In this document: piece after piece, positions 26,075-58,618 of the stretch | How positions within the stretch are numbered: position 1 is the stretch's first letter | How the letters are laid out: the number at the start of each line of letters is the position of its first letter | From: Chiloscyllium plagiosum | Lineage: Eukaryota | Assembly: GCF_004010195.1 (NCBI RefSeq) | Contig: NC_057752.1 | Span: forward strand, 11,554,915 to 11,618,914 | Length of the DNA stretch: 64,000 nucleotides | Reading direction: 5' to 3' | Translations under genes and position numbers: made by a program | The notes under the pieces: generated by a model | Databases searched by the model: none | Told to the model about the DNA's origin: nothing | The model's input: the letters and a program-made list of their open reading frames with translations, nothing else

Positions 26075-26405
26075 TTCATTATAGAATCCCTGCAGTGTGG
26101 AAACAGGCCAGCATCTGGCCCAACAAGTCCACACTGACCCACTCAAGAGTAACCCACCCAGAACCATTCCACTATCTTATTCCTGACTAATGCACCTAAC
26201 TTACACATTGCTGAATAATATGGGCGATTTAGCATGGCCAATTCACGGACCCTGCACATCTTTGAATTGTGGGTGGAAACCAGAGCAAACCCACGCAGAA
26301 ACAGGGATGTGCAAATTCCACACACGCAGTGGCCTGAGGCTGGAATTGAAACGGGTCCCTGGTGCTCTGAGGTAGCAATGCTAACCACTGAGACACTGTG
26401 CTGCT
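26075..26405 (-). mobile_element. HE1-like SINE
   Basis: Same consensus as 760-1100; paralog at about 46960-47265. Confidence 0.75.
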
Positions 26406-26534
26406 CTAAATGATTGGGCCCGCCCCAGTGGCAGGTTTTGTCACAGGGTCTGTGCTGACTGGGTCAGCTCTCTGTAAGAGCAGCCCAGCTTGTCTCAATC
26501 AGCAACCCCACTTCAACCATCACTTCACTGTTTC

Positions 26535-27053: not shown

Positions 27054-27330
27054 ATTGAGCTGATTTGTCAATGCCCTTCAGATGCAATCTTTCTTACCCA
27101 CACTCCAAGACCGTTCATTTCACATCCCAACCACTACCCTGTTAAAGGAACGTTTTGCATCAGGGCACTATTTCTTTCATTGCCATTCAGTGTGTATCTG
27201 TGTCTTTGGTGAACTTTCCCCCAACTCCTTTTGCTCATTGTGGGTCTCTCTCTGCTTCTCTTATCTTTCTGAGTCTCTGCAATACAACTCTGGAAAATGG
27301 GATCTCTGTAACATTTCTCACCCTACACTC

Positions 27331-28544: not shown

Positions 28545-29044
28545 NNNNNNNNNNNNNNNNNNNNNNNNNNNNNNNNNNNNNNNNNNNNNNNNNNNNNNNN
28601 NNNNNNNNNNNNNNNNNNNNNNNNNNNNNNNNNNNNNNNNNNNNNNNNNNNNNNNNNNNNNNNNNNNNNNNNNNNNNNNNNNNNNNNNNNNNNNNNNNNN
28701 NNNNNNNNNNNNNNNNNNNNNNNNNNNNNNNNNNNNNNNNNNNNNNNNNNNNNNNNNNNNNNNNNNNNNNNNNNNNNNNNNNNNNNNNNNNNNNNNNNNN
28801 NNNNNNNNNNNNNNNNNNNNNNNNNNNNNNNNNNNNNNNNNNNNNNNNNNNNNNNNNNNNNNNNNNNNNNNNNNNNNNNNNNNNNNNNNNNNNNNNNNNN
28901 NNNNNNNNNNNNNNNNNNNNNNNNNNNNNNNNNNNNNNNNNNNNNNNNNNNNNNNNNNNNNNNNNNNNNNNNNNNNNNNNNNNNNNNNNNNNNNNNNNNN
29001 NNNNNNNNNNNNNNNNNNNNNNNNNNNNNNNNNNNNNNNNNNNN
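28545..29044. other. Assembly gap (500 N)
   Basis: Run of N. Confidence 1.
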
Positions 29045-29955: not shown

Positions 29956-31753
29956 ATGATAAAGATCAAACTTGCCCTGCTGTGTGGACTTGCCATTGCC
30001 AGCATTGGTGCACAAGAAGGGACAGTTTACCTGTGCGATCCTGAGCAAACAGAGACTGTGCACCAACTATGCCAGGAAGATGTCCTTGTGTGCTGAGAGA
30101 CTGAATGTTACCAAGAATGACCATTGCAGTGATCAACTGCATCAAAAAGATTGACCAGTTCATTTACAGAACAAGTCTAAATGGTCTTTACTCTGTAAAG
30201 GTGTTGTGTGCCAGTTTGATTTCATTTGTACTATGGGCATCCCTGGTAAGCCTTGTTGCCTTTCAGATAGATCACGTAGTAAAAGAGACAAAGGGGGGTT
30301 TTATCCTTCACTAACAATTTGTTTCTAGAAACCCATAATAAAATATTTGGAGAGGATGAAATAGTTTGTTATGTCCTTACTTCAGCAACAGACTCCCTGA
30401 CCCCTTTTACCTTCTAAATCCTAGCATGGGGGTATAGAATAGTTCTAAATTATTTACAGGATTATGGACTTCCTCCAATAAATCCACGATATCCTATCCA
30501 AATTGCTACAATGGTAAGGGATGGGGGGTGCGCTATGTCAAAGTGCCTAAAATTATCCCCTGTGCTCTGGTAAAATGTATCAGTCGTCACTGCTTCCCTG
30601 AAGGATCTCGCAACTCGTGTGTATGCCTTAAGGAGGAATGTGTCTCTATTACCACTGCTATTCAAACCCTTTGTGGGGTGGGTAACAACACCCACCTTCA
30701 TTATGATACCTCTAATGGCACTAATATTTTCCCAATTATTGGATGGATAGAAACATTCTGGGATATTGGCCACGTCTCTTATCAAGAGACCCACCTCATT
30801 CGACTAAATGATTTTCAGCCTTTACGTTCGGGACCAAACTAAATAATCATGGATTACCCAGATACTCCAGGAAGTCACAAAGATAGGCCCGCTTCTTATT
30901 GGGAAGGTCCCTCCATTATCTATACTAAACCTGGATATTATTTTTTCAGTGATAATAACGCATCTAAATACCTTGTCCTGAATAGAACAAGTCCTCCTCG
31001 TGTTGTAGCTGTAGGAACACTATTTCCAACTATTGTTCCCTGTCCACTTACCTGGCAACGAGATTCAAATTCCCCTGTTAAACATTCAGTTTCTCCTGAC
31101 TTTTGTGCAGATTGGAAGAATCCAAAGGCCATATCAAGAAGTAAAACTCACTCATTGGCATATGCAGCTCTTAGTGTTCTTTCTGTAGGAGGGTCATCAG
31201 GAATTATTAGTCATCAAAACCGTAATTCCGTAATTAATCTCATTTGTGGACTCACGATTTTGGGAAATGAGACAACTGTTGTCCTAATAGAAATTAGTGA
31301 CATACTTTCAGAATTGTGCCTATTTACCCAACAAAACCGCTGTGCACTCGATTACATGCTTGTGAAAGAACGTGGAGTTTGTGCAATAGTCAAAGGAAAG
31401 TGCAACATGGAGGTCACTAATTTTATCGAAAACATTACTAGACATATAGATAATATCCGCACTTTTGTCAACCAAATGAATGAAGGTGCAGGATTGGGTT
31501 TTGGCTCATGGTACAACTGGCTAATCAATATGGCTATATATGCTGTTATTGTTTGAGTTGGTATTTTGCTGGTATTGCTATTGTTAACTGTATTATTGCT
31601 AAAATATTAGATTCTGTTGACATCATTGGTTCCACCCAGAAAATACTTCTTCTCCACTCAGCTGATGGTGAGGAAGCACCAGTGCCTGCCCCGGGTTACT
31701 CTTCGGAGGAAGAGAAAGTTTGGCAGTCATTCGCTGCCATCAAATTGGATTAA
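29956..31753 (+). pseudogene. env: Retroviral env pseudogene (signal peptide, Cys-rich SU, TM with immunosuppressive domain, anchor, tail)
   Basis: MIKIKLALLCGLAIASIGA signal peptide; ORF 30849-31556 with QQNRCALDYML..GVCAIVKGKC; W-rich pre-TM segment GSWYNWLIN; several stops and frameshifts. Confidence 0.85.
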
Positions 31754-36009: not shown

Positions 36010-36711
36010 GTGTGTTCAATACCCTGACGACCTGTGACTCCACTTTCAAGGTATTATCAATGTGCACCCCAAGGTCTCTTTATTCATCAGAACTCCCCAG
36101 GACCCCACCATTCAGTGTATAAGCCCTGCCCTGATTTGCCTTTCCAAAATGCAACACCTTACTTTTATCTAAATTAAACTACATCTGCCACTCGTCGGCC
36201 CATTGGCCCATCTTAAAAAGGCCCCATTGTACTCTGAGATAACCTTCTTCATGTTCACTATACTACCAGTTTTGGTATCATCTGCAAACTTACTAACCAT
36301 TCCTCCCATATTCATATCCAAATAACATATAGAAATTACAAAAAGCAGTGGACCCAGTACCGATCCTTGCAGCACACTGCTGGTCACAAGCCTCCAGCCT
36401 GAAAAATAAAATACCCCTCCACCACCACCCTGTGTCTCCTACTCTCGAGCCAATTGGTATCCATTCAGTTAATTCTCTCTGGATTCTAACCTTGCTAACC
36501 AGTCTAACATGTGGAACCTTGTTGAAGTCCTTGGTGAAGTCCATATAGACAACTCCCACCACTCTGCTTTCATCAATCTTCTTTGTTACATCTTAACAAA
36601 ATTCAGTAGAGTTAGTGAGACATGATTTCCCACGCACAAAACCATGATGACACTTCCTGATCAATTCTTGTCTTTCCAAATGAATTTGGATCCCGGCCCT
36701 CAGAATTCCCT
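36010..36711 (-). mobile_element. CR1 RT fragment
   Basis: VLQGSVLGPLLFVI..SKFADDTKTG and VYMDFTKDFNKVPH. Confidence 0.85.
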
Positions 36712-37440
36712 TTAAGAAACTGGGCAGGAGGTTAAAAATTGGTTTGTCAATGATACGAAACCTGGTTTACTCCAGGTGTCACGTGCTGGTGAGGGCAGGA
36801 ATAGGATGCTAGAGCATATCAATGCGAGACTGAGGGGCTGGTGCAGGGGGTAGGGATTCCCATTTTTGGATTATTGGAATCTCTTCTGGGGCAAAAGTGA
36901 TCTCTATAAGAAGGATGGTTTGCACCTGAATTGGAAAGGGCCCAATTCCTGGGCGGGGAGATTTTCTTATGCTACTCAGGAGGCGTTGAACGAGTGGGTG
37001 AAGTGGGTCTGGGGGGGGTCACAGTCAAGAAATAGTGAGAAAAGAAATAAGTCTGAGGTTGGTAGATTTGAGAAGGGGAGCAAGTCAATAGTCAAGGTAG
37101 GCAAGAGCAAGATAGAGAATGGGGTAAGATGGATGATTTAAACTGCATTTATTTCATTGCAAGAGGCATGTGAGGTTAGGCAGATGAACTCAGGACATGG
37201 TTGGGAACACGGGACTGGGATATCATAGCTATGACAGAAATGTGGCTCAGGGAAAGGCAGAACTGGCAGCTTAATGTATCAGTGTCTCAGTGATAAAGGA
37301 AGGATAGAAAGGTGGGGCAGTAAAGGACGGGGATTGGCATTTTTGGTTTGGAATAATATTACAGCTGCATTTAGGGAGGATATTCCCGGGAGTACATCTA
37401 GTGAAGTCATTTGGGTGAAACTGAGAAATAAGAAAGGGTC
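36712..37440 (+). mobile_element. CR1 fragment (end of ORF1 and start of endonuclease)
   Basis: DYWNLFWGKSDLYKKDGLHLN; IAMTEMWL. Confidence 0.75.
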
Positions 37441-37644: not shown

Positions 37645-38323
37645 CTGCGATATTATAGACCTCGGAACTTTAGTAACTGTTCATGGATTGGAAGAATCAA
37701 CAAAAGTGAAACTGTTGCATGAGAAAAGAAGCAGCAATGACTCTCTCTGGAAGAAACTGTTAAAGGACAGGGAGAAACCTATCCAGGAATTGGAAGGAGT
37801 TAGAATTGAAATCTCCCCGCCCAGGAATTGGGCCCTTTCCAATTCAGGTGCAAACCATCCTTCTTATAGAGATCACTTTTGCCCCAGAAGAGATTCCAAT
37901 AATCCAAAAATGGGAATCCCTACCCCCTGCACCAGCCCCTCAGTCTCGCATTGATATGCTCTAGCATCCTATTCCTGCCCTCACCAGCACGTGACACCTG
38001 GAGTAAACCAGGTTTCGTATCATTGACAAACCAATTTTTAACCTCCTGCCCAGTTTCTTAAAGGGAATTCTGAGGGCCGGGATCCAAATTCATTTGGAAA
38101 GACAAGAATTGACCAGGAAGTGTCAGTTCTCGATTCAACAAAATTAACAAATAAAGATGAGGGACTGTGATATTATAGACCTCAGAACTTTACTAACTGT
38201 TCATGGATTGGAAGAATCAACAAAAGTGAAACTGTTGCATGAGAAAAGAAGCAGCAATGACTCTCTCTGGAAGAAACTGTTAAAGGACAGGGAGAAACTT
38301 ATCCAGGAATTGGAAGCAGTTAG
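37645..38323. repeat. 159-bp direct repeat (37645-37803 and 38165-38323) enclosing a 317-bp inverted copy (37809-38125) of 36648-36964
   Basis: Direct sequence comparison by eye. Confidence 0.9.
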
Positions 38324-39145: not shown

Positions 39146-42100
39146 AACAATCTAACATAGCTGGTCATAAGTAGGACCAAACCTCCCCATGTCGTTCTGC
39201 TAAACTTATACCAACACACCCATGTACAGGATCATCTTCGTACTTACAACAATGAAATAATAGTCAGAGTGGCTGATCCCCCCAATGCTGCATAATCACT
39301 GGCCCAGAGTGTTTCACTCCAGTCAGTGACCATACTCAGACCCATCCTGTCTTGAGACATTGTCCCATAACACTCTTCCATTCTTCCCGACTTTTAGGTT
39401 TGTTAGAACAGCACACGGCATTCCAGTGATTCAATAATTTTATGATGAAGAGAAATCTCTGTGAGACGAGACCAGTTCAGGGAACAGAATCTATCCACAA
39501 CCATCGGACAGGGAATTTCAGAGAATGATTTCACTGACTGGGTGTCTGTTGAGTTGGGATGACTCAGTCAGCCATGTTCAGTCACAGTGTGACAGCAGGA
39601 AACAAGCCCCACATTGATTCAGGCAAATTCAACATTTCCATACATTTTTAATCAACTTAACAGAGATGTGAGAAACACGTGGGGAACAGGGGGAACTTGG
39701 ACCCAGGCTTGCTTTAGTTCAGTAGTAAGGACACATTAAGCTGCCAGGCTATGATAGGGGATAAATACATTTAAGGACTGGACAGAAAGAGAGAGACTAC
39801 TCCCCCAGCTATTCAGTTGTGTGTTGTCTCTGCCGACAGAACTGTGAAATATTCGCTGAAACCTGAAATAACAGTTTGGCAGGTCTCTTCATTTCTTCTT
39901 CTCCTTTGGATACTTTAACCACAGGATATTTTTGCTTGTATTTTCAAGCCGGCACTACTTCTACAAAATACTTTTACTCATGTGTCTTGTTGGTCTTTCT
40001 CCTGTGATTGAATCTGCGTGCGTGTTGATTCTTTTGGGAAATACTTGAAGTTTTCAGATCAGTAATTACTCATCGATTATCCACTTGTTAAAGGATAGTT
40101 TTGTTACAGAAAACATGATTTCTGTTTTCTTGCTATTTATTTTCAATTTTAGTCTGGGAAATGGTTTCTTTATCTTAGATGGAGATCAATGAGATATTGA
40201 CCATCTGTAAGTGTTTCATATTTGAGATGACTTGTGGATGAGTGTATCTTGATATCCAGTGCAATGTTCCCACCATGTCTGTGACACTATCCTTAATCCA
40301 TGGTGGTATATTCCCAGAAATCCCGTGCCCATTCATATTGTTTCCAGTGAGGCACTTTATCAAAATCCTTCTGATAATCCAAATACACCACATCCACTGC
40401 TTCACCACATCAACTCTGCCAGGAACATCTTCAGGAATTCCTCTCAGTTCTCTCCCCTTCACAATTCCGTGCTGCCTCTTCTGAATCAGAGAATGTTTTT
40501 CTACTTGTAAAATAATTGTTTATTGTAAAATAATTGTTTGCTTTGCAATAAATTAATCACCCTCCCAATGACTGAGGTCAGGTTTACAAATCTACCACTG
40601 CCATTTTCATTGTCCAACCTTTCTTAAACAATGATGAGCCTTTTCAAATGCTGAACACCTGTCCACATTGAGATATTGATATCATTTGAACTGTGATGAT
40701 CAGTGTATGTGGTGGAAACCTTTATGTGACAATCACTCTCTCTGTCGCCATTTTCTTTCAACTCTCTCAGGCAAATGCCAGCGGGTCCCCTCAATGTGTC
40801 AACTTTCAGTCTCATTAATTTCTCCAATATGACTTCCCTACAATATTGAATTTCTTTCAGTTCCACACTTGCCTGGATCATTGAATTGTGAATGTGTTAG
40901 GGAGAGTTCCTCTGTCTTTCATTGTTAAGGTAAACATAAATTACATCTTTCCCTTCTCTACTGCTTCTCTCTTTCCTATTATACATGCCTGTCTCTTCCC
41001 GGAATTGACCCACATTCATCTTTCCGAATCTGTTTCGCTGAACATTGTGCAACCATCAGCGAACATCCGTCCCTTTGACTTGTGGTGGATGCAGTGTAAG
41101 ATGGATAGCCTGGGATACTACACTGATGAAATCCTGCAGAGATGTCCTGGAGTTGAGTTACCCACCCCCAAAACAACTACAACCATCTTCCATTGTCTTC
41201 CACATGGCTCCAAACGGAGGAAAAACTGCTCCCTGATTCACATTGACACTGGTTTTGTGGGGGCTCTTTTCCTACAAATTGCCAAACGTCTCCTTAATGT
41301 CAAGGACAGTCACTCCTACCAGGTCTCCAGTGTTTGTAATTTGTAATACGAAGAGGAAAACATCACGTGGTAATCCTACGTAAAGATTGGAACATGAAAA
41401 TTTCCACCAGAATAGTTTCATAACCTTAGTGATAGAGGAGTAGGAAATCTGCTGTCTTTTAACAATTAATGCAGTTAGCAAAGCTAAGTGTACCTCCTGA
41501 ACCAAGACCATATACGGTCCAAGCCCTTGACATTTAAGAATATTGGGAACTTAATTTACAGAGAACCTGAGCAGAAAGGTGTTAGTTTGTAAATGTTTAA
41601 GACATGTGAGGAAAGGCCAGCCAAGTGGAATGTGGAGCTTGTCACATGTAGGGAGTCCTGGACATTGTCAGTGTCCGAGATGACCACATGTGCAGGAGGT
41701 GTTCCCAGCTGCAGAAGCTGGAGCTCTGGGTCTCAGAGCTGGAGCAGCAGTTGGAGACACTGTGGCACATCCACAAGGCTGAGAGTGACATGGACAGCAC
41801 ATTTAGAGAGGTAGTAGTCACATTGCAGCTCAAAGAACAAGAGGGAAGAAGGGAATGGGTGACCACCATACAGTCCAAAAAGAGCAAGCAGGTAGTGCAG
41901 GAGTCCCCTGGGGTCCCCCTCACTAACCGGTATTCTATTTTGGAAGCTGATATGGGTGCTGGTACCTCGGAGGAATGCAGTCAGAGCCAAGCTTCTGGCA
42001 CCACAAGCAGCTTGACTGTACAGGGGGAGGAATAAAGAAAGAGGGATTCTTTAGTCAGGGGAGCAAACATCTGCACCCAAAGATATTACTCCAGGATGGT

Positions 42101-43309
42101 ATGTTGCCTCCCTAGTGCTAGGGTCAGGAATGTCACTGAACGGCTGCAGGGCATCCTGAAAGAAGTGGGTGATGGGTTAGAGGGCGGGCAGCATATTGGT
42201 CCCGATGATATGGGCAAAGTGAGGAATGACATCTTGCATAAAGAATTCATGGAACTAGTCAGGAGATTAAAAAGCAGGACCTCAACAGTTGTCATCTCTG
42301 GATTATTACCAGTTCCACGAATCGGTGAGTATAGAAATAGGAAAATTGGTTGGATGAACACGTGGTTCAAGAGTTCATGCAAGAGGGAGGGTTTAAATTC
42401 CTGAATCACTGGGACCATGTTTGGAAAAGGTGGGACATGTGTAAAGAGGATGGTTTGCACCTGAACCACACTGGGACCGACATGCTTACGGGTAGGTTTG
42501 CTAATGCTGTTGGGAGGAATTTAAACTCATCTGGCAGGGGGAGGCGACACAGGATGTTGATGAAATAGAGCCATATCATGGTACAGCATAGGAAGCAAGT
42601 CAAATTGAGTTCAGCGATGTTTAGTGTCATGAGAGTAATGCAAGGCTGGATGGCCTTTAATGTGAGGAGTGTAATAGGTCAGACTGATGAGTTAATGGTG
42701 TGGATTGACACATGGAACTGTGATGTTGTTATCATCACAAAAACATGGTTGAGGTAAGGGCTGGCATGGCAACTCAACATTCCCAGGTACAGGATATTTA
42801 GGCGAGACAGAGGAGGGCGTATAAAGGGTGGTGATGAAACACTATTAATGAAGGATTCTATTACTGCAAGAAGGAGAGATGTTATCTTAGATGGGCCCTC
42901 AAACGAGGTTTTGTGGATAGAACGTGGGAATGTTCAGGGCGCAGCTACTTTACTGGAAGTATACTATCGGCCCCCAAAGAGTCAGCGGGAAATCGAGGAG
43001 TCAACATGAAGATGGTTCACAGAGATATGTGATAATAATTGTCGATAATTGTAAGGAAAAAAAGGGAAAAGGTCTTTCCCCCAACTATATCCCCTCCAAA
43101 CACTCTCGGAGGAGGGACAACAACGAGTCACTCAACTCAATCGAAGTCAAAGCAAACTAAAAATCAAATCCCCTAGGGCCATCCCCATCAATCTCACATG
43201 GGATAGGGACAACAAGGGTTAGAATGAATCTCTTGTTTCTCTCAGAAAGTCCAAAACGATTATGTGAAACAAAATTACACTGGAGCGAAAACATACTAAA
43301 TGATGGGTG

Positions 43310-44075
43310 GATGATTCACTCCAGCTCCTGCAGTGCCCACCAGTCTCGACCATGCTGGTGATGACCATGTGCTCCATTTCCAGTGACACCCGAGGGCTGA
43401 TGTAACCGCGAAAGAGGAGCAGCTAGTCAGGAATGACAAGGCCCTCCTTCGCCTGCTGCCTGGACCTATTAATGGCTATCTTGGCCAGGCCCAGGAGCAC
43501 AGGCATGAGAAGGCCTGTAGACTTGTCTGCCCACCCCCACACCTGGTGTCAGTAGATCAGGAGGGTGGGAGCGAATGTTAAACAACATTTTAACAGCAGC
43601 TGTTTCAAAAACCGAACAAGAGGCTACAAATGGACACACTGGACATACACATGGAAAACCTCCAGGCCACAGAACGGGCGTGTGGTCTGACACCCGGTGA
43701 ATTCCCTCAGTCTACAGTTGCTTGGGATCACTGCATGCAGCCCTCCACACACCAGATCCCCAAGGTAAGATGGGAGGACCCCTTTGTAGATGACCCTCCT
43801 ATGGGAATGTCAGCTCACAGAGGGAAAAATGTCACACCAAGGCATGGCTGGGCAGTGGGCGGAGGTGTAGCAGTGGAGAATGTGCAGCATCAGCCCGTAC
43901 ATATAACGCCACTGTGCTGTTCTAAAGGGCACCAGGAGGATTTCCCCCAGACAACTCAAATTGTGGAACACCACTTCACAGGGCAGTGTACGGGGTGTGG
44001 GATTGTTGTCGAGTTCCAGACGGACAGGGGTCAGAAATCTGCCTCCTTCCTTGCTCCAGAGGGCACTGTGTGACA
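43310..44075 (-). mobile_element. Tx1/L1-like LINE ORF2 C-terminal zinc-knuckle remnant
   Basis: Minus-strand translation includes GDLVWRGLHAVIPSN..PFCGLEVFHVYVQC..LLGLAKIAINRSRQQA. Confidence 0.6.
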
Positions 44076-44303
44076 CTGATTATTCCTCATTTATTCATGT
44101 TCATCCATTGTTCTTGATGCAGTCATCTTTGGTATGATTGAAATATGCTGTTTAATGACAGCCTTGAGTTAATGCTCTGAGTACTCTTTTTGTCATCGCT
44201 AATATTAGATAGATTTTCTCCTGCAGAACCTTTCTTTTCCTCCATTCATCCCGCTATCACTGTTATCCATTCCCCTTCACATGCTGTGGCATTACCATTT
44301 GTT

Positions 44304-45193
44304 TTATTGATGCTGACATTGAATAGTTCGCTTGAAAGGAAACATCAACGCATTTGTGAATTTTTCTCTGAACTTAGACAGTGTTGCTACATAAATAAGT
44401 GTGTTTGTGCAGCAGTTTATATCCCGGAGCATATATGCAACATATTGGAATATATATTCAGAATATATATCTAATAATGGATATAAAGTACCAAAATAAT
44501 GCAAAAGGTACCACATCCATAGAAGGATGAAACTACTGGATATCGCGAAGAGTAAAATGATAGACTTTCTTCTGCTCTCCATCTCCGAGTCACAATGATT
44601 CTGCCCCTTGCTCTGATCCCTCAGTCTCTTACGGGCTCGACTGGCCACTAAAATGTACCTGACTGTCAGAGTGTTGATCAACAGAATTAAAGCAAATGGG
44701 AGCATTGGAGTTAAGATCTTTTCAAACCTTTTGAATCGTCTCCATATGGGATCGTTATAATATGCTTCACTACTGGTGCAGTACCACTCGACATTGTTAA
44801 TGATTCGTTTAGCTTCGTACCTGAAGTAGGTGGGAATGTTTTTGAAACAGAGCAGAATGCCTGTTGTTGCTAGAACCACTGTCGCAGTTTTCTTGGTGCA
44901 ATATTTCGTTTTCAACTTCTGGCAACAAATGGCAACAAATCGATCAAAGGTAAAAGTGACAGTGAACCAGACAGAACAATCGGTGGCAGCACGGCGCAGG
45001 ATATAGTGAACTCTGCAGACAGTCGTCACATCCAAGAAATTAAGAGGGAAATAAGAATTATTGATCCGGTACAGTATGACCTCAAGGATAATGTACAGTA
45101 GATCCACTGTTGCCATGGTGACCAGGTAAGATGTGGTGCATGGGGAGATTCCACATTTTCCTCTGAATAAAATCACAAGTGCTAGTAAATTCA
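44304..45193 (-). CDS. GPR139-like GPCR copy B, exon 2 (intact)
   Basis: Acceptor cttctctcacag; VNLLALVILFRGKCGIS, VCRVHY, FDRFVAICC, WYC, NCCTNTLIY, helix 8 SKFREKF, stop at 44304. Confidence 0.85.
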
Positions 45194-46857
45194 CTGTGAG
45201 AGAAGGGAAAGGAGATTAGAAATTATAGAAAAAACATTCACAGTTTCTGAGGGCAGACCATTGAACAAAACAAATCAGCCATGCCTTCAACAGATCTCCA
45301 AGGTGGACAGATCAGGGTAAAGATCAGGTTGAACAGGTATCAGTCAGAGGGATGTAACAGACTGCTCACCGGTAGCAGCTCAGTACTTTAATATTCCAAT
45401 GAGGAATTGTGTGCCTGAAGCTGGAGAAGTGCAACTTTGGAGTAGGCTCTCTCCTCCCTCGGTTGCAATGTGTTTTATTTTATTTTGGGAAGTGCTTTAC
45501 CTGCAAAGAAATACTCACTACCCCATTGGACACCATCTCTGAGTTGAGTGTCTGTCCTTCACACATCACATTTTGTGGCCTTACCTCATGTAGATCAGCC
45601 TTACTCACCATTACTTTGAACTCCACCCACAACTCCCATCCATATTAACAAATTGTTGGGAATTTGCAAATCAGTCAGAGATTTTGCTTTCACTTCCAGA
45701 CTTGTTTCAGCAATGAGCAAAGTGTTTGTTGATGCATTAAATTCCAAGGAACCGGTAGATTTCCTTTTTTCCGTCATACTGTTTGGCATCCAGCTTCCAA
45801 TTGAACTGTGTCTCTGTGACGAGACTCCAGTTGATGTGAGGGTGGATGCAGGAAGAAAGCTCTGTAGATCTGTTCCCACTACTCCACATATCACCAAGTG
45901 AAATAAAACTCACAAGAATGCACATCATCAATTTACATTTCACACAAAATGATTTGTCAAAAACGTTCCTCAGCAAAAGCATTTTTTTTACAATGAGGAA
46001 AAAACATTCAACATGTATGGCATCTTTGATAAACATGGAATTCAGGAAGGTAGGGGAGTAAATGGTTATCGCAATTAAACGTACCAAAAGACAATCTCTC
46101 CCGCTCTGTCTCTCTCTCTCTCTCTCCCTCTCCTGCTTTCCCTCTCTTTCTCTCTCTCTCTCTCTCTCTTCCTGTTCCCGAAAGGAGCAGAGAACAAAAC
46201 AGGTTCTCTTTCAGACATGGAGAAATTCCAAAAGAACAGACACAGTCTGACTAACAGATTATTTGTGAACACAAAATGAAAAGGTTTTGGATGTTGCAAT
46301 GTAATTTGTTCTGTGTTTTTACACGTGGTTATGCCACTAACATGCACCTTTGCCACGCTGTCTTGTACATAGAGATTCTTCAGAAAATATAATGTTTTGA
46401 TGCTCTTCCAGGCATCCTTTCAAAATAAGGAATACGTTTCACTCTGAAATGATGTCATGGGATTTTTTGTTTCTGAATTGGGAGAGGTAATCTGGAGCAG
46501 CATTCTTACGGCAGCTTTCTCTCCAATTCAGCATGTTCTTAGCAGACCTTTCTCCAACTCAACTATATCCTCAGAACCTTCCCTCAACTCCAGTGTGTTC
46601 TTACCAAGCATTCTGCCAACTCAACACGTTTTAATGAGCTTCTGTGCAATTCACCTTGTCCTCAGCAGATCTCCTCCAAATGAATCCGATACAATAACTT
46701 CTCCAAGACAGTCATTGTTCAAAACATATTGACTCATGCAAACTCAACAATTTGAGACACACATGGGGAGCTTGTAACCAGGCCTGCTTTAGTTCAGGTG
46801 CAGGGACACTACCACTGCACCACAAGCACCATACCCTCAGCAATCACAGACACTTTC

Positions 46858-46908
46858 CAGGCAAACCAAGTCCAGCTATTGCAACATAGAATATCTTCTT
46901 GACCACTT
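46858..46908 (-). pseudogene. GPCR copy B exon 1 remnant (start codon deleted, donor GT>GA)
   Basis: Reads *VVKKIFYVAIAGLGLP G|gaaagtg; about 256 bp present in copy A (25771-26026) is missing. Confidence 0.8.
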
Positions 46909-48216
46909 AGACATTCTTAGGCTCAGAAATCTCTCAAAGTACTCCTACCCAGCATTTTAATCATTGAATCCCTACTGACAGGAAACATCCCAACAAGTCC
47001 AGACCAACCCTCTCAAGTATAGCCCACCCAGACCGATTTCCTTACATTTACCCTGACTCATGCACCTCACCTACACATCCCTGGACAAATTTGCATGGCC
47101 AATTCATCTAATCTACACTTCTTTGGATTGTGGGAGAAAGTCCACACTAGCACAGGGAGAATGTGCAAACTTCACACACACAGAGTGGCTTGAGGCTGGA
47201 ATCGAACCCGGGTCCCTGGTGCTTTGAGATAGCAATGCGAACCACTAAGCCAACATGCCATCCTAAATGTTTGAGACCTGGCCGGTGGGAGGGTTTGCCA
47301 CAGGGTCTGTGCTGACTGGGTTAGCTCTCTGTCAGAGCAGCTCAGCTTCTCTCAATCAGCAACCTCACTTCAACCATCTCTTCACTGTTTCCCTCAGCCA
47401 GATCAGGAGTAATGTGTCCAGTTCTGGTCGCATTCATGCAGAAAGGATAAAATTAAGCTGGGTAATGTTCAGAAAAAGTTTACCAGGATGTTTCTAGGAA
47501 TAGAAGGTTTCAGTTATAAGGAGAGGCTAGATAGGCTGGTGTTGTTTCCACTGGATCGCATGTGGTTGAGCAGTGACCTTATGAAGGTTGATAAAACCAT
47601 GAGGTGTTGCAAATGAGGTGAATAGCTGGCCTCTTTTCCCTCCGGTGGGGGATTTCCAGACTCGGGGTATATTTTTTAATGTGAAAGGAGAACGATTGAA
47701 ACAGACATGAGGGTATTTTGTTTAACACACAGAAAGCTTTGTGTGCAGAATGAACCCCCAGAGGATGTGGGTACAGTGACAACATTTAAAAGACATTTAG
47801 ATAAGTACATGAATGGGAAATGTTTGCAAAGATATGAGCCAAGGGCAGGCAGGTGGGACTAGATTATTTTGGAATTATGGTCTGCAGGGACTGGTTGGAC
47901 CGAAGGGTTTCCTTCCGAGCTGTATGACTTTCTGACTCTATGACTGAGGCGATAAATCAATGTCCTTCAGATTCAATCTTTCGTACCCACACTCCAAGAC
48001 CATTTTGTTCAGATCCGAACCACTGCCCTGGAACGTTTTGCATCAGGACACTGTTTTATTCACTGCCATTCAGTGTGTATCTGTGTCTTTGATGAACTTT
48101 CCCCCAACTCATTTTGCTCATTGTGGGTCTCTCTCTGCTTCTGTTACCTTTCTGAGTCTCTGCAACACGCCATCTCTGGAAAGTGGGGTCTCTGTAACAT
48201 TTCTCACCCCTACACC

Positions 48217-48800
48217 CTGTGATGATGCTGTCACTTTAAAAAGGCCATTTTGTCCTGGGTTGTTTTGAAGCGTGGGTGTAAAGGTATAGGTCCCGAGGAA
48301 TCTGGGGAGTTTAACAGTGTAACAATGGAAGGGGAGTGGCCAGTTCTCCCAGATCAGGTTTCCTCCAGTTTTATTTTTGATGCAGCATTCACAAGATATT
48401 GGAGTCCAGACGTGTTGCAAGCTTCAGTAAAGAATTTGTCTGACTTTCTCTGAAATCTCTCTCTGGAAGTTGTTCCTACCTGCCTGCTGAATCTGTGTTT
48501 GAATTAACCTTTCTGTCTAAGGTTGTTCTTATGGGATGTTACTGTATTGGAACAGCTCGTTAGTTAAGTTGCTGTCTCGGGTCTGTTATGTTTGTTATAG
48601 ACCAGGCCAGACACCCCTCAAAATATTTTGAGAAGGGAGCCTAGACCCTAACTTTTTCTTATTGTAAATGCAGGTGTGAAGTGGATATTCCAGGTGTGAT
48701 GCAGCTGGTCAAACCACTCGGCTTTAAGCAAAACTTATTTAATTTAAACACCACAGTTGAAGCACAAACTAAAGAAATCGGAATTTAGAATAACTTAATG
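48217..48800. mobile_element. Inverted Gypsy LTR pair (paralog of 27331 onward)
   Basis: tgtgatgatgctgtcac at about 48218; junction tgttatagaccagg at 48592. Confidence 0.65.
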
Positions 48801-49891
48801 ATGGGTCAAATACTGGCAAATGGGACGAGATTGGGTTAGGATATCTGGTAGGCATGGACGAGTTGGACAGAAGGGTCTGTTTCCATGGTGTACGCCTTTG
48901 TGACTGTACTGGAAAACCTACCATATATACCATATCTGAGTAATATTCAGATAATTTCTGACTACCTTTTAAGGTTAAATTGATGGGATCGACTATTACA
49001 TGGATACTACTTTTGAGTGGCTGAAATGCATGCCCGCCAAAATTAATTCCATATCATTAGCAGAAATCCAATTGATCTCTAAATAAATAAAGAGAAAAAA
49101 AAAATCACGGTAATGCTGAAAACCCGGAGTGGAGCGTGACAGCCTACGCACTGGAAGACCAAGACTGAAGGGTGATGACCAGCACGCTCACTCATAAATG
49201 TTGATCTCTTCTCTGTGAAGGACTAGGGTCTATTATTATACAAGATACATCGAAAATTCCAGATTTTGTTTGACAAAACATTGACAATTACGTTCTCTCA
49301 TCCTGACACATATATAATTTTCACATTGAATGGTTGCAATAATAAGTTGCATCGAAACAGTCTGGAATTTTGTCCTTAAGTTTCTCCACAAATTTTAATG
49401 GGTTATGATCAGTATATACAATTGTCTCAGACACATTACTAGCAACATAAATGTGGAAATATTTTAACATTGACTCTAAGCTCAAGGTCTCCTTCTCTGT
49501 TGTCGAATATTTCTGTTGACGAATATTCAATTTCCTGGAGAAGTACCCGATAGGTCTTTCTTTCTTTTCATCGTCTTCTTTTAAGAGTACAGCAGCGACA
49601 CCCACATCACTCGCATCGATAGCCTCTTTGAACATCTTTGCTTCATGAGGTATGGCCAATACTGGGGCAGTGGTCAACTCAGCTTTCAGGCTGTCAAATC
49701 CTGTCTAACAGTTTACCGTCCATTGAAACTTTCTGCAGTTCTTCAATAAGTCAGTGGAGTAGTACGTGGAGCAGCCACTTTCCTAAAATTTGGCACGAGT
49801 TTCCAATAAAATTCACTCAATCCCAGGAATCGTGGTACTCCTCTCTTCATTGATGGCATGGGAAACTCCTCAATATGTTTCTTCAATGTTT

Positions 49892-50008
49892 CCGGAAGAA
49901 ATATCACAGAAGGGCTTCACAGGAGGCTCCCAAGCACTGAGGATGTCACCTAGACAGGGGACGAAACGTCTGCAACACAAATTCCCAGCTCGGCGAACAG
50001 AACCACAA
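49892..50008 (+). mobile_element. Penelope-like pLTR fragment with an intact hammerhead (49934-49973), inserted in Gypsy pol
   Basis: gcactgaggatgtcacctagacaggggacgaaacgtctgc, identical to 13351-13390. Confidence 0.75.
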
Positions 50009-53000
50009 CTCCTCAATAATCTTTGTTATCACATTCCATGGGTCCATCTATCCATGTCCAATAACATGGCCCAGGAATGTGACTTGAGCTTTGACGACTT
50101 CCCTCTTAGCCAGCTTTATCACCAAGCCTGCCTCCCAATGTCAACTGAATGATTCTGATAAATGCTGTAAATATATCTTCCATGTGTGACTAAAAATTGC
50201 CAGGTCATCTTTGTAAATGACACAATTGCGTTATTCAGAAATGACTTTATTGGTTAGTCTTTGAAATGTGGATGGTGAATTTTTCATACCAAATGACATG
50301 ACTTCGAAGTGTTAAAGTCCATTTGGTGTTACAAAAGCCGAAATTGTCTTTGCTCTTTCAGATAAAGGTACCTGCCAGTCTCCTCTGAATAAGGCCAATT
50401 TAGAAATATAAGTTTCTGGCCCCACCTTCTCAAAACAGACTTCCAAACATGGAATTGAATATGAATCAGACTTTACAACTGCATTGCCTTTGTGATAATC
50501 TCGACGGAATTATTGGGTACCACGTGGTTTTGAAACCCTTAACATGGGAGGGCTCCAATCACTGCAATTCACTTTGATTATGTTGTCCTCGTGCAAGCGT
50601 TCAATCACTTTTTGAAACTGTGCCAATTTTAGAGTGTCACATCTATGAAAATGTTGCTTAATTGGAGCAATATTTCCCAAATCTACACCATGCATAATTA
50701 TATTCGTACTTCCAGTTTATTCCCACATATTTGCTTAAACAATAGGGTCATTTTCTTGTCCTGCCACATGCACAACTTTAAAATTGAATGGCTGTAACAA
50801 CAGGCTCCACACAAACAGTCTGGAATTTTTGTCCTTAAATTTCTTCACAAACTTCAATGAGTTATTATCAGTGTATATGATTGTCTCAGATACATTACTG
50901 GTACCCATAAATGTTGAAATGTTGTAACACCAATACCAAGCTCAAAGTCTCCTTCTCAAATGTCAAATATTTCTGCTGATCAATCTTCACTTACCTGATA
51001 GGTATTTCTATTTCCTTGTTGATTTTCTGTAAGAGTACAGCACTGACACCCACATCGCTCGCATCGATAGCCACCTTGAATGACTTTGTGCAATTAGGTG
51101 GGGCTAATACAAGGGCAGTGGTGAGTACAGCTTTCAGGCTGTCACATGCCTTCTGACAGTTTGCTATGCATTGAAAATTTCTTCTTTCATAATTCAGTAA
51201 GTGGAGCAGCCACGTTGTGAAAAATTGGTGTGAATTTTCAATAAAATCCACTCCGTTGCAGTACTGCTCTTTTTGTTGATGATATGGGAAACTCCCCAAT
51301 TATCTTTGCTTTTGAATTCTGTGTGGCCGTTTGTCCACGTCCAATAACATGACTCAGGTAGGTGACTTGGGCTTTGGCAAATTCACTTTTGACAAGGTTT
51401 ATCACCAAGCCTGCATCCCGAAGTCGATTGAACAAGTCTAATAAATGTTGAAAATGTTCCTTCCATGTGCGAGGAAAAATCATCAGGTCACCAATATAAA
51501 CTACAGCATTTGGGTTATCTGGAAATGACCTTATTGGCTTGTCTTCGAAATGTGGCTGGCGCATTTTTCATACCAAGTGGCATGACTTTAAACTGATACC
51601 GTCCATTCAGTGTTACTAAAGCCATAATCGTCTTCACTCTTTCAGACAAAGGTACCTGCCAATATCTTCTGAGCAAGTCCACCTTTTCAACGCGGTCTTC
51701 CAAACGCAGAATCAGATATGCATCAGTCTTTGTAACTGCATTAACTTCGCAATAGCCCACCCGTAACCATTGGGTACTATCTGATTTTGGCACCATTACT
51801 ATGGGTGAGCTCCAATCACCGTAACTTATTTTGATTATGTTGTTTTTGGAGCAGGCGTTTAATCTCCTTTGGAAGTTGTGTGCCAATTTTAGAGCGTTAT
51901 GCTGACAAGGATGTCACTTAATTGAACAGCATTACCTTTGTCAACATCATGCAGAATGAAGTTAGTACTTCCAAACTTATTTCAATATATCTCTTCATGC
52001 GATAGCAATAACTCTTTCAGGTCATTGCAATTTTCCTCTGGAATGTAACTCGCAATTTATCCCAATTTTTGACAACTTCCTTATTGTTCAATTTAATTTG
52101 AGGAATGTCCAATTCAGAATCCTCTGAACATGGTTCTTCCCGCTGTGTTGTAACCAGTAACAGCTTCTCCTCTTGCTTTCCTTCCCTGTCAAAATACATT
52201 TTGAGATTTCTTTCTGTCCGGAGTCCTTATCAAATAGGTCACCTCACTCAATCCCCTTTTGACTTGATAAGGTCCACTAAACCTTTAAAGGTTCACCTAC
52301 GACTGGAAGTATCACTAACATCTTACCTCCAATAACAAAATTGTGAGTTTTTGATTTCTTGTCTGTTCCCTGTTTCATTGCATGGTATGATACGTTTAAA
52401 TGCTGTCGAGCCAACTGCCCCGCTTTATTTAATCTTTCCCTGAAATTTAACATATACTCTTAATATATGGTCTCAGAATTCTGACACCAACTTCTCCTAA
52501 ATCAATTTTCGCATTCCTCTCACTTCATGCCCAAAAACTAATTCAAATGGACAGAATTTGGTCAATCCATTTTTTGCTTTTCTGATCGCAAAAAAGGAAA
52601 CAAATGGAATTCCTTCATCCCAAATATCCGAATACTCTTGACTGTAAGCCCTCAACATGGTCTTTAATTTCTGAAGCCACCATTCCAGCACCGCCTCTGA
52701 ATCTTGATGGTATGAAGTAGATTTAAGTTGTTTTATTCCTCATATGTCCATAACTTCCTTGAATAATTTTGATGTCAAGGTTGAGCCTTGATCTGATTGT
52801 ATGTCTGTGGATAGTCCATACCGAGTAAAACAAATTTGAGTAACTCTTCCACAATCTCCATTTCCTCATCAAGACATACTTTTTGAGATGGAAACATTCA
52901 GGAATATACTCAATTTCTTCTTCTATATAAGTTTTTTGATACAATTCTTTTAGTTTTTCATCTTTCTGTTGTAACTCAGTTAATTTCTCTGAGCTAAAAA

Positions 53001-54134
53001 TATCCACTTTGTCCTCCACCTGTTCTTGTTTCGTCTCAACTATTTGATCAAACATGGTCTCTGATAATTCAAATTCTTTACCTGTATTCTTTGATATCTC
53101 CTCCTGTTTCAAGCAGACGCTCTGCGACCTTGTTATCACACAGTCAGGAAAAGTCCCAGGGTACACTTCCTGTGATACCTCAGTTGCCTGATTTTCCACT
53201 GGCTTTTCAGCCACAGTAGGCAGCACTCCCACCTGTGACCCAGCCAGATCATTATGAATGACAAATTATATTCCTGGAGCTGAGAACTTTTCCAGTACTC
53301 CAATCATCCTTTCTCCAATTTTCACTGGACTCTAACATCTCTCTACATAATGGAGCACTTCTCTCACCATGGATTCCACATACGAGGACTTTTTCTGGTA
53401 ATAATCCTTCTGAGTTACATGTCTCCTCATCTTTCTAAGTCGAAGATTGACATGATTCCATTTTTTTTTTAATATTACAACTTATTTATCTGCTACCCCT
53501 GGCCTGGGTGAGTGAACCTTCCCTTCGCAAGTAAATAGTTTCAGCAGATCTGGCACTTCCTTCTCAACCAACCTCTGACCAGCTTGGACATTCTGGTGCA
53601 GCTTTTTAGCCTCCGCGGTACTTTCCTTTACCATTTTCACAAAATTCACTGGCTTATCCTGCTTTCTGACATCTCTCTTCCCAATACTTTTCCCAACCCA
53701 CCAACACTGTAATTTCATGTGGCCTACTTTATTGCAGCGAAAACACCTGAGCCTTTTAACTTCTCTTTCCCCTTCATGGGTTTCCTTTTTACCCTCTTTC
53801 ACAATCAATGCATGTTTGGCCCGGGTCCCTCCTGAGATTTCTGAAATATTGTCTGTAGGCTTCTGACACAAGCTCATATGTACTTAAGATGACTTTCTTC
53901 GCCTCCTCATATTCCACAGATACCTCCTCTGAGAGTGAATGCAAAACAACACTAGCGTTACCTACCAATTTTGTTTGGATCAAAAGACCTCACATGGTCA
54001 CTGGCCACTTCATTTGTTTAGCCACTTTCTCAAATGAAATGAAAACAGCTCTGAGGTCATTTTTATCCAATGTAGGCAATCCTTGGATATATTTAAACAC
54101 GTCCCCACCAGGCCTTTGGCTCTATCTTCCTGAC

Positions 54135-54396
54135 CTGGCCCAATAAGTGCACACCAACAATCCGAAGAATATCCCACCCAGACCAATCCCCCTCTCCCAT
54201 CACCCTGTATTTCCCAAGGATAATGCACCTAACCTACATATCTCTTCACACTATGGGCAATTTAACTGGCCAATCCACCCTAATCTGCACATCTTTGGAC
54301 TGTGGGAGGAAACTGGAGCCACCTGAGGGAACCTATACAGACATGGGGAAGGTCCAAACTCCACACGGACATTTGCCCAAGGCTGGAAATGAGCCT
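54135..54396 (-). mobile_element. HE1-like SINE
   Basis: Consensus match to the other copies; same position next to the LTR as 760-1100. Confidence 0.7.
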
Positions 54397-54944
54397 GGCC
54401 CCAATCTGTTATGGACCAGGTCAAATTCTTCAACATATTTTAACCATTCGAAAACATAACCATCCCCATATAGTAATTATTGCTAATTAACTGTTCGAAT
54501 ACCATAACATCCCATAAACACATCCCTTGGTAAAAATGTAAATTCAAACACAGATTCTTACAGGCAGGAGGGAAAAGCATGAAGAAAGATTTCAGAAGAA
54601 GGCCAGAGGACTTCCTTCCTGAAGCTTGCAACTCCCCTGGACTCATACATCTTGTGACTGCTACAGCTCAAAACAAACTAGAAAATATCTGAACAGGGAG
54701 AACTGGCCACTCCCCTTCCATTGTTAAATTAGACGTTTCCTAGACCCTTCAACACCTCTGCCTTTACACTTCTCTTCAAAAAGGTTCCCAGACCTGTCAA
54801 CCAGGTTCCTCAGCAAAGACAATTGTTTGTTTACAATTAGGACAAAACATATTCAACAAGTATGGCATCATTGATTAACATGGAATTCAGGAAGATCGAG
54901 GACTGAATGGTTTTCCAATTAAAACTACCAAAAGACTCTCTTGC

Positions 54945-55587
54945 TGTTATGGATTAGGCCAGACCACTCAAAACATTCTTAAACAGGTAACCCAGACCAT
55001 AACTTTGCAATTTGTTTTGGTAAATATACAGTGAAAATTACCTGGAGTAAGTTAGCGAGGTTGACCACCAGGTTTTAAAACAGACAAAAATTTATTTGTA
55101 AAATTATACAAAGAAAAACACGAAGAACTGAATAAAGAACTCCTCCTGATGTTAATCTATCCAAACTGGACTTAATTATGCTGTTCAAATATACACAACG
55201 GTCCGAATAAGCAAACCCACTTAAGAAAACAGTAAAAAATAGAACAAGTGCTTACAGGTTGAAGTAAGAAGGGCAGAAGGAGAGACAATTTTGCAAGCTA
55301 TTCACACAAAACTGAACTCCTAACTAGTTCTATACTGAACTGCACAGCTAGAGAGCTGACCACTCCCCGTTCATTATACAGGTCACTTCTAAAACTTGAC
55401 CACTTTGGCCTGACGTCTCATCTGTTTACATGGAAACAAAAAGACTTCTCAACACGCTTTAATCTCTGCACTAGAACAGTCTAATCAGAACCTGGAGATG
55501 ATAATGACCCCTCTGAAAAAAATCCAAGAACACAGTATCCTTGAGAAAAGGAACAGCTTTTAGAAAAAAGGAACCAGCTTTGTGACG
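54945..55587. mobile_element. Solo LTR inserted in the intron of GPCR copy C
   Basis: tgttatggattaggccagacc...tttgtgacg; absent from introns A and B. Confidence 0.6.
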
Positions 55588-56321
55588 CTCATGCTCTTTC
55601 TCCCGGTTCTCAAAAAGAGCAGAGAACAAATCAGGTTTTCCTGCAGAGATTGTCAAATTCCGAAGAACAGGTCCAGTTTGTGAAGACAAAATGACAAAAT
55701 GTTACATGTTGCAAAGTCATTTGTTCTGTGTTTTAACATGTGTGGTCATGTCACCAAACATGTACCTTTGCCTATGAAGTCCTGTACATACAGATTCTTT
55801 AGAAAACACAATGTTTTGAAGTTCTTCCAGTCACGCTTTCAAAATAACAAGCAGGTTTCACTCTGAAATGATGTCGTGGGTTCTTTTGTTTCAGATTTTG
55901 GAGAGACTATCTGGAGCAGCTTGATCACAGCAATTTGTCCTCCAATTCAGCATGTTCTTCGGAGACCTTCCTCCAACTCAATTATATCCTCAGAACCTTC
56001 CCTCCAATCCAGTGTGTTCTTACCAGGCGTTCTGCCAACTCAACATGTTTTTAAGTGAGCTTCTGTGCTACTCAGCTTGTTCTCAGCAGATTCCCTCCAA
56101 GTGAATCCGATACAACAACAACCTCTCCAACACAGTCATTGTTCAATACATCTGGACTCATGGAACATCAACAATTCTAAACACTTTGAATCAACTTGCA
56201 CAGAGATGTGAGAAACACATGGGGAAAGGGGGAACTTGTACCTAGGGCTGCTTTCGATCAGGGGTAGGGACACTACCACTGCACCACAAGAACCCGACCC
56301 TCAGCAATCACAGACACTTAC

Positions 56322-56388
56322 CAGGCAAACCGAGTACAGCTATTGCAACGTGAAATATGTTCCTAACAACTCGAACAGTTCGATGCAT
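56322..56388 (-). CDS. GPCR copy C exon 1 (MHRTVRVVRNIFHVAIAVLGLP), intact but lacking its own exon 2
   Basis: ATG at 56388, 67 nt, CCT G|gtaagt donor; intron homology to A and B ends at about 54790. Confidence 0.8.
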
Positions 56389-57684
56389 TTTCTGAGTGAA
56401 GAGTTCAATTACGTTGTGCTGCAAGTAATCTCTGTCTGATTCAAAATGGGACAAAGATCCTTATTTTATACCCTGCAGGAGCTGCCATGGGAATCTGTGG
56501 TTGCAAAATGTTTCCAGTTGTTTCTTTTATAAAGATGTCGCCAAGAAAAATTTCGACAAACGTGTTACATCCCTGGTGATGGAGGATATTGAGCAATCTA
56601 TTTTGGAGGGCTCTGCAGCTCTCTTGAGATGAAGAAATTCCATGGTGCCAATCTTAGCCTCAAAAGTAACATAAAATTAGTCACTGATTAGTCAATGATC
56701 TTCAGCTTCAATCTTTCTTACCCACACTCCAAGACCATTTGTTTCAAATCCTAACCACTGCCCTGTTAAAGGAACGTTTTGCATCAGGACACTATTTCAT
56801 TCACTACCATTGAGTGTGTATCTGTGTCTTTGATGAACTCTTCACCAATGTATTTGGTTCATTGTGGATCTCTCTCTGCTTCTCTTACCTTTTTGAGTCT
56901 CTCCAACACACCATCGCTGGAAAGTGGGATCGCTGTAACATTCTCCTACACACTCTCTAAAACCCTTTGATGAAACGTGTTCCCCAGAACGTGACACAAT
57001 CAGCAATATTTACGAGCCCACTGGACGTTTCAAGGGCTGTGAATTTTCAGTTTGTCATCTCACACATTGAAAATTGCATTTTCTTCCTTCACACCGAACT
57101 CAAAATTAAACCAATGGGGCGTCGAACCTCTCCCCGAATTTTGTTCGCTCCTGTCTATTGGGAATGCTTCCTTCTCTTCCAGGAATTTTCTGTCCCCTTC
57201 CAAGTTATAGAATCGTTTCCAATATGGACCATATTCAGTGACTGTCATTTGTAACTTCCTTCCACTTTCTCATCCCTTCCAGATGAACTACACCCCAGAG
57301 TTCTGAAGGAGGGAGCTGACGAGATTGTGGAGGCATTGGTGGTGATTTTTCAGGAATCGCTGGAGTCATGGAGGTCCCAGAGGACTGGAAAATGGCTAAT
57401 GTGACACCTTCCTTCAACTAGGAAGGGAGGCAGAACTCTGGAAACTACATGCTGGTTCGCCTGACCTTGATTATTGGTCAGAGTTTCGAGTCCATTATGA
57501 ACCATAGACACACAGAAATGATACAGCACAGAAGAGGTCCGTTGAGGCCATCTTGTACTGATCCAAAGTCACCCAGATACCCTTTCTAATCCCATCTTCC
57601 TATATGTGTCCCATTGCCTGACACCTTCCATCACCTCCAGTGCAGATTCAGGTACTTTTTAAAGAGTTTGCTTTCTCTGCCTTC

Positions 57685-58340
57685 TCTGGCTTCTCTGTGT
57701 TCATCCAGGGCCCCAAAGGCTCCCTCCAGGTGAGACAGACGTTCACCTGCCCCTCTTCCAACCCAGTTTACTGCCTCAGGTGCTCCCGATGTGGTCTTCT
57801 CTACATCAGGGAGACCAAATTTAAACTTAGGGAGCGGTTTGCTGAGCATTACAGCCAGGTTCGCAGGGGCTGACCGAAACTCCCAGTCACCATTCATTTC
57901 AATTACCCCAACCACTCTCTTTCGGACATGACCATCCTTGGCCTCCTCCATTGCCAAAACAAGCCACAGCTCCTATTGGAGGAACAACACCTTATCTTCC
58001 GCCTGGACAGCTTACAGCTCGGAGGACTCAACATTGAGTTCTCCAATTTCAGATAATCTTCCTCACGATCTCCTGACTCTCTTCCTAACCCCTCCCCATC
58101 CCTTCCACTGCTCCCTGCCACCAACCGGATTCATTCATCTGATTGACCAACCAGGTCGGACTCTCTACTTGTCTTCACCCATCCCCACCTCACCACCCTG
58201 CCCCTGCCACCCCCTTTATCTGCATCTCCCGCCACACCCACCTCCAATCCTGAAGAATGTTTACACCCAAAACGTTCACTTCTCCACCTCCTAATGCTTC
58301 CTGGCTTGCTGTGTTCTTCCAGTTTCCTGCTTGTTGACTT
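57685..58340 (+). mobile_element. Penelope-like element 3' part with a GIY-YIG endonuclease remnant
   Basis: FTCPSSNPVYCLRCSRCGLLYIRETK..LRERFAEH, HFN..H and EEQHLIFRL..GLNIEF; decayed hammerhead-like ctgaaga..aaaacgtt at about 58250. Confidence 0.8.
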
Positions 58341-58618
58341 TACCACAAACTGAGACAGTGAGCTCCAGACACCCACCACCCTCTGTGTAGAAAGGTTTCT
58401 TCTCACATCCTCTGTAATCTCTCTGTCCCCTCGTTGAATCTATCAGCCCTAGTTTTTGAAGTCTCGGTCAAGGGAAACTACTACCTCCTAACCACTGCAC
58501 CTCGACTCTTCACAGTTTAATACACATGGATATTAAGGATGAGATTGCTGAGTACTTGGAACAGTGTGGTAAAATAGGGCTAAGTCAGCACAGCTTCATC
58601 AAGGGGGGGTCCTGCCTG

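Follow-up and report, generated by a model that had tools for sequence, protein, structure and literature searches.

The stretch of Chiloscyllium plagiosum DNA analyzed here (contig NC_057752.1, positions 11,554,915 to 11,618,914, 64,000 nucleotides in total; hereafter, the window) contains four copies, designated A to D, of a gene for a putative orphan class A receptor in which a short exon 1 encodes the N-terminus and a long exon 2 encodes the seven-helix body. Exon 1 of copy C can be joined to exon 2 of copy B across 11 kb of DNA that includes the remains of a retroelement, and we propose that the promoter and N-terminus of C and the seven-helix body of B may live today as one expressed gene, with a probability of roughly 0.30-0.35. 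The broader proposition that this fusion worked under selection at least part of the time stands at about even odds, judging from the sequence comparisons described below.

Exon 1C (56322-56388, minus strand) is 67 nt long, with the ATG, 22 codons and one additional nucleotide, and is followed by a GTAAGT donor identical to that of copy A. The leader of copy C has no upstream ATG, and a TATA-like box (TATAAAA, 56464-56470, minus strand), better than that of copy A, which has AATAAAA in this position, is located about 80 nt before the ATG. Exon 2B (44304-45193, minus strand) begins at 45193, after a pyrimidine tract and a CAG acceptor that are intact in the copy B intron (45194-46855, minus strand), and is open through the TAA stop at 44304; it contains a 7tm_1 domain, and AATAAA signals are present at 44308 and 44095. 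Splicing from 56322 to 45193 would skip 11,128 nt with GT..AG ends and yield 957 nt, that is, 318 codons without an internal stop, a length that fits family members of 309-325 amino acids sharing the same N-terminal pattern. Thus, the original prediction of an intact exon 1C, an open exon 2B with a good acceptor and a complete joined frame is borne out, the seven-transmembrane character being supported by a rough check in which seven hydrophobic peaks exceed 1.2, with an overlap between the first and second and no peak at transmembrane helix 7 (TM7). The compatible phase on the same strand, which was also part of the prediction, is real but carries no weight as evidence: exons 1A and 1C have an equal length of 67 nt and the phase is common to all copies, so that the match is automatic between paralogues and, therefore, the joined frame, although open, tells no more than its two exons do. 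By one simple rule, the 11.1 kb to be skipped contain one other acceptor-like site (chance expectation 1.4), at 49078, and splicing of exon 1C to it would yield a short dead-end peptide. The poly(A) signals in the same interval number 9 compared with 6.3 expected by chance, neither count being informative.

Each of the two exons has lost its own partner. The remnant of exon 1B (46856-46909, minus strand) lacks its 5' part, with about 255 nt that include the promoter, leader and ATG deleted relative to copy A (25772-26026), and its donor has changed from GT to GA (46857-46856), in agreement with the earlier statement that this exon is dead. The adjoining upstream DNA of copy B (46910-49267, minus strand), which includes the acceptor-like site at 49078, is common to copy A (26027-28295). 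Exon 2C is missing from the window as stated previously: a tblastn search detects exactly three copies of exon 2, A, B and D. Of exon 1, the window contains exons 1A and 1C and the remnant of exon 1B. Two additional pieces, 19043-19146 and 39610-39734, were considered as further gene copies and rejected given that their similarity is confined to a short repeat where the intron begins.

The way in which exon 2C was lost appears to differ from the original proposal that a Gypsy element had cut the C intron at about 54790. The 5' part of this intron (55588-56321, minus strand) is paralogous to A 24991-25719 and B 46162-46857 and is followed by a repeat of about 640 nt that resembles a long terminal repeat (LTR) (54945-55587, minus strand), flanked by an imperfect 7-nt direct repeat; other genomic copies of this repeat end at 55586, judging by loose ends in the mapped sequencing runs. 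The last piece of the intron (54791-54944, minus strand) matches A 24777-24928 and ends at the inferred deletion joint. Immediately beyond lies a cut LTR (54405-54790) that matches 1137-1502 of a 1.37-kb LTR at the start of the window (1137-2506), the remaining 1 kb being missing, and then two decayed internal pieces of a Gypsy-type element (49280-54392, minus strand) with reverse transcriptase (RT) and RNase H matches, a short-repeat insert (54136-54392) and a young 118-nt repeat (49892-50009). The C intron stops at 54791, and the DNA beyond the element is not the rest of this intron but the upstream DNA of copy B (46909-49267) that is shared with A. Because the LTR at the joint is itself cut midway and the far side is B upstream DNA, insertion of the element into the C intron was rejected; most likely, a non-homologous deletion joined the cut LTR of the B upstream DNA to the C intron. 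The labels "Gypsy-type" and "LTR" rest on Pfam matches to RT and RNase H and on terminal repeats, and also, as does the label "env-like" used below, on motifs that we take to be typical of such elements.

A paralogue of the region 52854-58615 is found at 227-4407; it retains the whole LTR, lacks the C fragment and seems to represent the state before the deletion. The two regions share the Gypsy piece and the short repeat and differ by 13-16%, the same depth as the duplications that produced A, B and C. The whole 1.37-kb LTR at the start of the window ends at a point that corresponds to ordinary upstream DNA in copy C (about 56950) and to LTR sequence in A and B. These flanks suggest that the element inserted upstream of the common ancestor of A and B and was never present in C, and that a single deletion extended from the middle of the far LTR of B into the C intron. 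The 1.37-kb LTR has inverted ends of about 40 nt; compared with this copy, its halves near A (27330-27908) and B (48216-48800) are in swapped order and reversed orientation.

The joint also bears on the explanation that the assembly is wrong, with a collapse or a false join having dropped exon 2C from what would be a normal gene C. We regard this as very improbable. The assembly is gapless from 44304 to 56388, and the joint consists of unique intron sequence and an LTR piece whose closest copy in the window differs by 16%; the two sides of the joint share no near-identical repeat. Public sequencing runs provide additional information; 4 of the 24 listed runs were mapped on 43800-57400, and what is said of DNA runs X1 and X2 pertains to the 16 pieces shown out of more than 46,000. 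In run X1, which may come from the source sample, exon 1C, the C intron, the B intron, the B upstream DNA and the Gypsy pieces are covered at a depth of 15-22 with one or two other letters per 330-710 nt, such that the pieces on both sides of the joint have similar depth and one or two other letters each; the contig over 56311-56639, which includes exon 1C, has one other letter, and the contig over exon 1B shows no change at the dead donor among the rows shown. In favor of a misassembly, none of the X1 and X2 pieces shown bridges 54785-54791, and the window does have one gap (28545-29044). Furthermore, exon 2B contigs in X1 and X2 have a depth of 56-61, about three times the flanking depth in X1, with other letters at 44730, 44738 and 44754, and this excess could be an unplaced exon 2C. 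These deep contigs seem to be further B-like copies located outside the window, or alleles; one variant letter at 44730-44754 restores a conserved Gly.

The history that we propose would involve five steps. Copies A, B and C arose as duplicates, which are now about 15-17% apart in non-coding DNA; a Gypsy-type element probably inserted upstream of the A/B ancestor, a site that shared flanks indicate to be empty in C; and a non-homologous deletion then appears to have brought 54790, in the far LTR, next to 54791, in the C intron, removing exon 2C and leaving exon 2B as the next acceptor of the family. Exon 2B would thus have come under two promoters, so that the promoter, ATG and donor of B became spare and were lost with exon 2B still under selection, and what remains might be a transcript that runs through the retroelement and is spliced to encode a putative orphan class A receptor of 318 amino acids. 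The outcome would be a swap of promoter and N-terminus between close paralogues rather than a new kind of protein, and decay of the unit may already have set in.

Tandem arrays are an established source of hybrid genes. Deletion-type hybrids include haemoglobin Lepore and the sirenian Hba-T2/Hbq pseudogene (described in the accessible part of PMC6526914), as well as the olfactory receptor OR8U1, derived from OR8U8 and OR8U9 (PMC2570968, accessible part). As in these cases, the 5' part here comes from the upstream paralogue and the 3' part from the downstream one, the DNA between them appears to have been lost, as suggested by comparison with 227-4407, and the predicted product has the normal length of the family. 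In contrast to these hybrids, which result from crossing-over in matching sequence and form a seamless gene, the joint here connects an LTR to an intron, the B upstream DNA and the dead exon 1B remain inside an 11-kb intron, and the fusion would happen only at splicing. Thus, the C-B unit, if expressed, would work like a Lepore-type hybrid but is not one, because the break is not in matching sequence and the dead exon is kept. A review has proposed that many chimeras form when partial duplicates become joined in a second step (Katju, 2012; PMC3449122); the examples in the accessible part of that paper join different genes or recruit new sequence, whereas here both parts belong to one family and the ancestral structure would be rebuilt.

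The case for complementation rests on a mismatch between the decay of the two B exons. Within 659 sites of shared intron, lineage-specific change amounts to 0.067 in A, 0.068 in B and 0.091 in C. Of 57 sites in the exon 1B remnant with its donor, 6 carry B-specific substitutions (0.105; the deletion joint accounts for one further difference), compared with 2 changes in A and 5 in C; given the lower value in the B intron and the 2 changes in the A exon, exon 1B seems to have evolved neutrally along most of the branch. Exon 2B shows a different picture. Among 111 columns with at least 90% conservation across 106 family proteins, it retains 108 (the family median is 3 misses), and it has 2 new changes, against a neutral expectation of 14.1, 7.0 or 3.4 if drift spanned the entire branch, half of it or a quarter, respectively. 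The ratio of non-synonymous to synonymous rates (dN/dS) between A and B is 0.50 (22 synonymous and 36 non-synonymous differences; Fisher p 0.016), and in neutral simulations an open exon 2 survives the whole B branch in 0.3% of cases with insertions and deletions and in 18% without them, or in about 14% over roughly a third of the branch. Because the conserved-column count, the survival of the open frame and the A-B dN/dS point in the same direction, exon 2B appears to have been under selection for most of its history, and the much stronger decay of exon 1B lends moderate support to complementation. In a toy model, "exon 2B still selected" is favored over "both B exons died together" by odds of 4-141 across 24 settings, and "exon 2B outlived exon 1B, then died" by odds of 5-22.

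Several observations weigh against this view. The toy-model odds rest on very few changes and ignore both gene conversion and the selection of the locus for its appearance. Exon 1C, which shows no sign of selection in these comparisons, has accumulated 4 C-derived amino acid changes in 22 codons, with a neutral expectation of 3.1-4.2; one of these replaces Tyr13, which is Tyr in 39 of 41 family N-termini, with His, and the other three say little because positions 4-6 are variable in the family. The comparison of both exons with paralogues that was suggested with the original prediction points two ways, exon 2B appearing constrained and exon 1C changing at the neutral amino acid rate. Between C and A, the promoter differs by 19-24% and is no better kept than the intron, which differs by 16.5%. 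The LTR-like repeat in the C intron carries an AATAAA at 55096, 1,226 nt past the donor; the direction of the insert is not settled because AATAAA is present on both strands, and LTR-like inserts are selected against in introns (PMC1794541, accessible part). The truncated copy A is as well kept as B, with 11 derived residues in A, 12 in B and 9 unpolarised, and with 3 changes in A and 2 in B at the conserved columns, from which it follows that an open exon 2 is common in the window. The early death of exon 1B is weakened because two of its three amino acid changes (to Lys) produce residues common in the family and because two of the six changes (46872 and 46886) are absent from the X1 contig, which has ancestral letters there. 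Finally, other B-like exon 2 copies would lower the need for rescue, and a stretch of 68 codons in which A and B show no synonymous difference (p 0.025) hints at gene conversion. The idea that two half-dead duplicates complement each other thus holds as a mechanical possibility with moderate support from the timing mismatch, and the lack of any sign of selection on exon 1C speaks against it.

These observations leave room for the possibility, doubtful in our assessment, that exons 1C and 2B are chance neighbours in a decaying array: the deletion of exon 2C would have killed C, a late promoter deletion would have killed B, exon 2B would be open for lack of time, and any C transcript would be noise or end early. 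As such decay would have it, each of the four copies in the window is either broken or incomplete; A and B show equal wear; and exon 1C, changing at the neutral amino acid rate, could be intact by chance, as neutral drift over this divergence leaves exon 1 intact in 38-46% of simulations. The model places a joint death of the B exons in the last 12-27% of the branch, which is possible but requires a second change, in the donor, and five more within 57 nt in a short time; the toy-model odds against it are 4-141.

Gene conversion could account for the same pattern differently, if B has long been dead and exon 2B was overwritten from a working paralogue, so that its open frame and low dN/dS are borrowed. 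In addition to the 68-codon run, the exon dS of 0.128 is slightly below the non-coding distance of 0.15-0.17, and X1 and X2 contain the B-like exon 2 contigs at a depth of about 56-61 with variant letters, compared with 15-22 for flanking X1 pieces. The putative tract, however, covers about a quarter of the exon, with 21 synonymous differences elsewhere, and we consider this scenario unlikely.

Expression of the proposed C-B gene finds no direct sign in the RNA data mapped here, which have almost no power. In RNA run X21 (about 2 in 100 reads sampled, tissue not stated), 300 reads were placed, 298 of them partial fits mostly on repeats; the 56322-45193 joint is not among the joints shown, and the mean depth on exon 2B bins is at most 0.14. 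Run X22 yielded no reads, and a search of public runs with 44080-45200 listed no RNA run, a blank without weight as evidence.

The comparison copies put the C-B unit in context. Copies A and B lie inside a duplicated block of about 9-10 kb (18943-28295 and 39510-49267) with 85% identity in aligned sites and a different deletion in each. Copy A has an intact 67-nt exon 1 (25720-25786, minus strand), an intron of 2,056 nt, and an exon 2 (22883-23663, minus strand) that has lost about 940 nt (B 43472-44412) through a deletion within TM7, such that copy A would encode 290 amino acids. Exon 2 of copy D (13781-14676, plus strand) is open, has a good acceptor and is 49% identical to exon 2B, with 23 of the 111 conserved columns altered; no exon 1 of D was found in the 13.7 kb upstream within the window, and it may lie before base 1. 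Copy D is probably a divergent or decaying member of the family. The claim that the fusion would be the only intact receptor in the window holds for the visible sequence, where A ends before the end of TM7 and D is without exon 1, with the proviso that the first exon of D could precede base 1. A 500-N assembly gap (28545-29044) is located just upstream of copy A.

Exon 2B belongs to a class A (rhodopsin-type) receptor, with a Pfam 7tm_1 match of 53.4 bits (cut-off 30.5) that covers positions 2-260 of the 260-position profile. The nearest proteins are shark and ray models annotated "probable G-protein coupled receptor 139"; one search yielded 2,161 family proteins among 3,132 candidates, and the best 120 matches are all from sharks or rays, with 49-77% identity. 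The closest relatives form a cluster in Stegostoma tigrinum (XP_059499344-355), with 77% identity across the full exon 2B; eight members of this cluster from one 19.6-Mb contig were compared as proteins, and they have the same N-terminal pattern as exons 1A and 1C. Scored against a profile of 41 family N-termini, the 22-residue piece of exon 1A reaches 47.6, that of 1C 40.5 and that of 1B 9.5, with a background below 1. A count of private residues (B 20, A 24, Stegostoma copies 34-36, family median 6) was tried as a decay test and dropped, as it reflects subfamily distance. The eight near-identical Stegostoma models on one contig show expanded there a subfamily that is decaying in the window, and several of the Stegostoma models carry long N-terminal extensions that resemble a translated leader.

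The nearest human counterparts considered are GPR139 and GPR142. Human GPR139, a two-exon gene whose true orthologues are about 70% identical from human to zebrafish and whose ligands are L-Trp and L-Phe (PMC7318219, accessible part), is the top solved-structure match of a 28-sequence family profile (E 9e-15, next 6e-9, 91 matches). Exon 2B alone, searched against solved structures at E 0.001, gives 14 matches, all to other receptors and none to GPR139. Because GPR139 is reached with the family profile but not with exon 2B by itself, the name indicates no more than a remote relationship; the shark family is a distant expanded relative of GPR139, not its orthologue. An exact look-up of five window frames in protein records found none of the five (some start points were guessed), and no record equals the exon 2B frames; a weak search of longer proteins with the exon 1C frame produced one candidate, none scored and none carrying the exon 1C peptide. 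We found no published work on the expansion of GPR139-like receptors in sharks, with subscription papers mostly outside reach and supplements, which may list the family, not covered. The accessible text of PMC11979771 and PMC8455134 does not mention the family, that of PMC6504862 on GPR139 names no sharks, and the available part of the whale shark paper reports a paucity of G-protein coupled receptors in cartilaginous fishes (PMC8455134).

If expressed, the C-B gene would offer a clear example from nature of tandem duplicates with complementary losses, and it would caution that "partial" models in the family may be parts of working genes. Its product would differ from an ordinary B receptor only at a few N-terminal residues and in the promoter. 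Should such arrangements be true and common, gene models would understate both the functional receptors and the promoter swaps in the huge GPR139-like arrays of sharks. A bigger question is posed by the GPR139-like family as a whole, for which a single search gives over 2,000 shark and ray proteins.

The window has several other features. Broken frames at 30438-31556 (plus strand) resemble the transmembrane part of a retroviral envelope, with what we take to be an immunosuppressive-like motif and a Cys pair, hence the label "env-like"; a Pfam scan of these frames produced no match. A 317-nt inverted repeat (36648-36964 and 37809-38125, 99.7%) beside a 159-nt direct repeat (37645-37803 and 38165-38323, 97%) probably reflects a very young rearrangement or an assembly artefact. 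Finally, a young repeat is present at 1-141, 13057-13465, where two copies are inverted, and 49892-50009, with 93-97% identity between copies, and reaches very high depth in the DNA runs and is also seen in RNA run X21.

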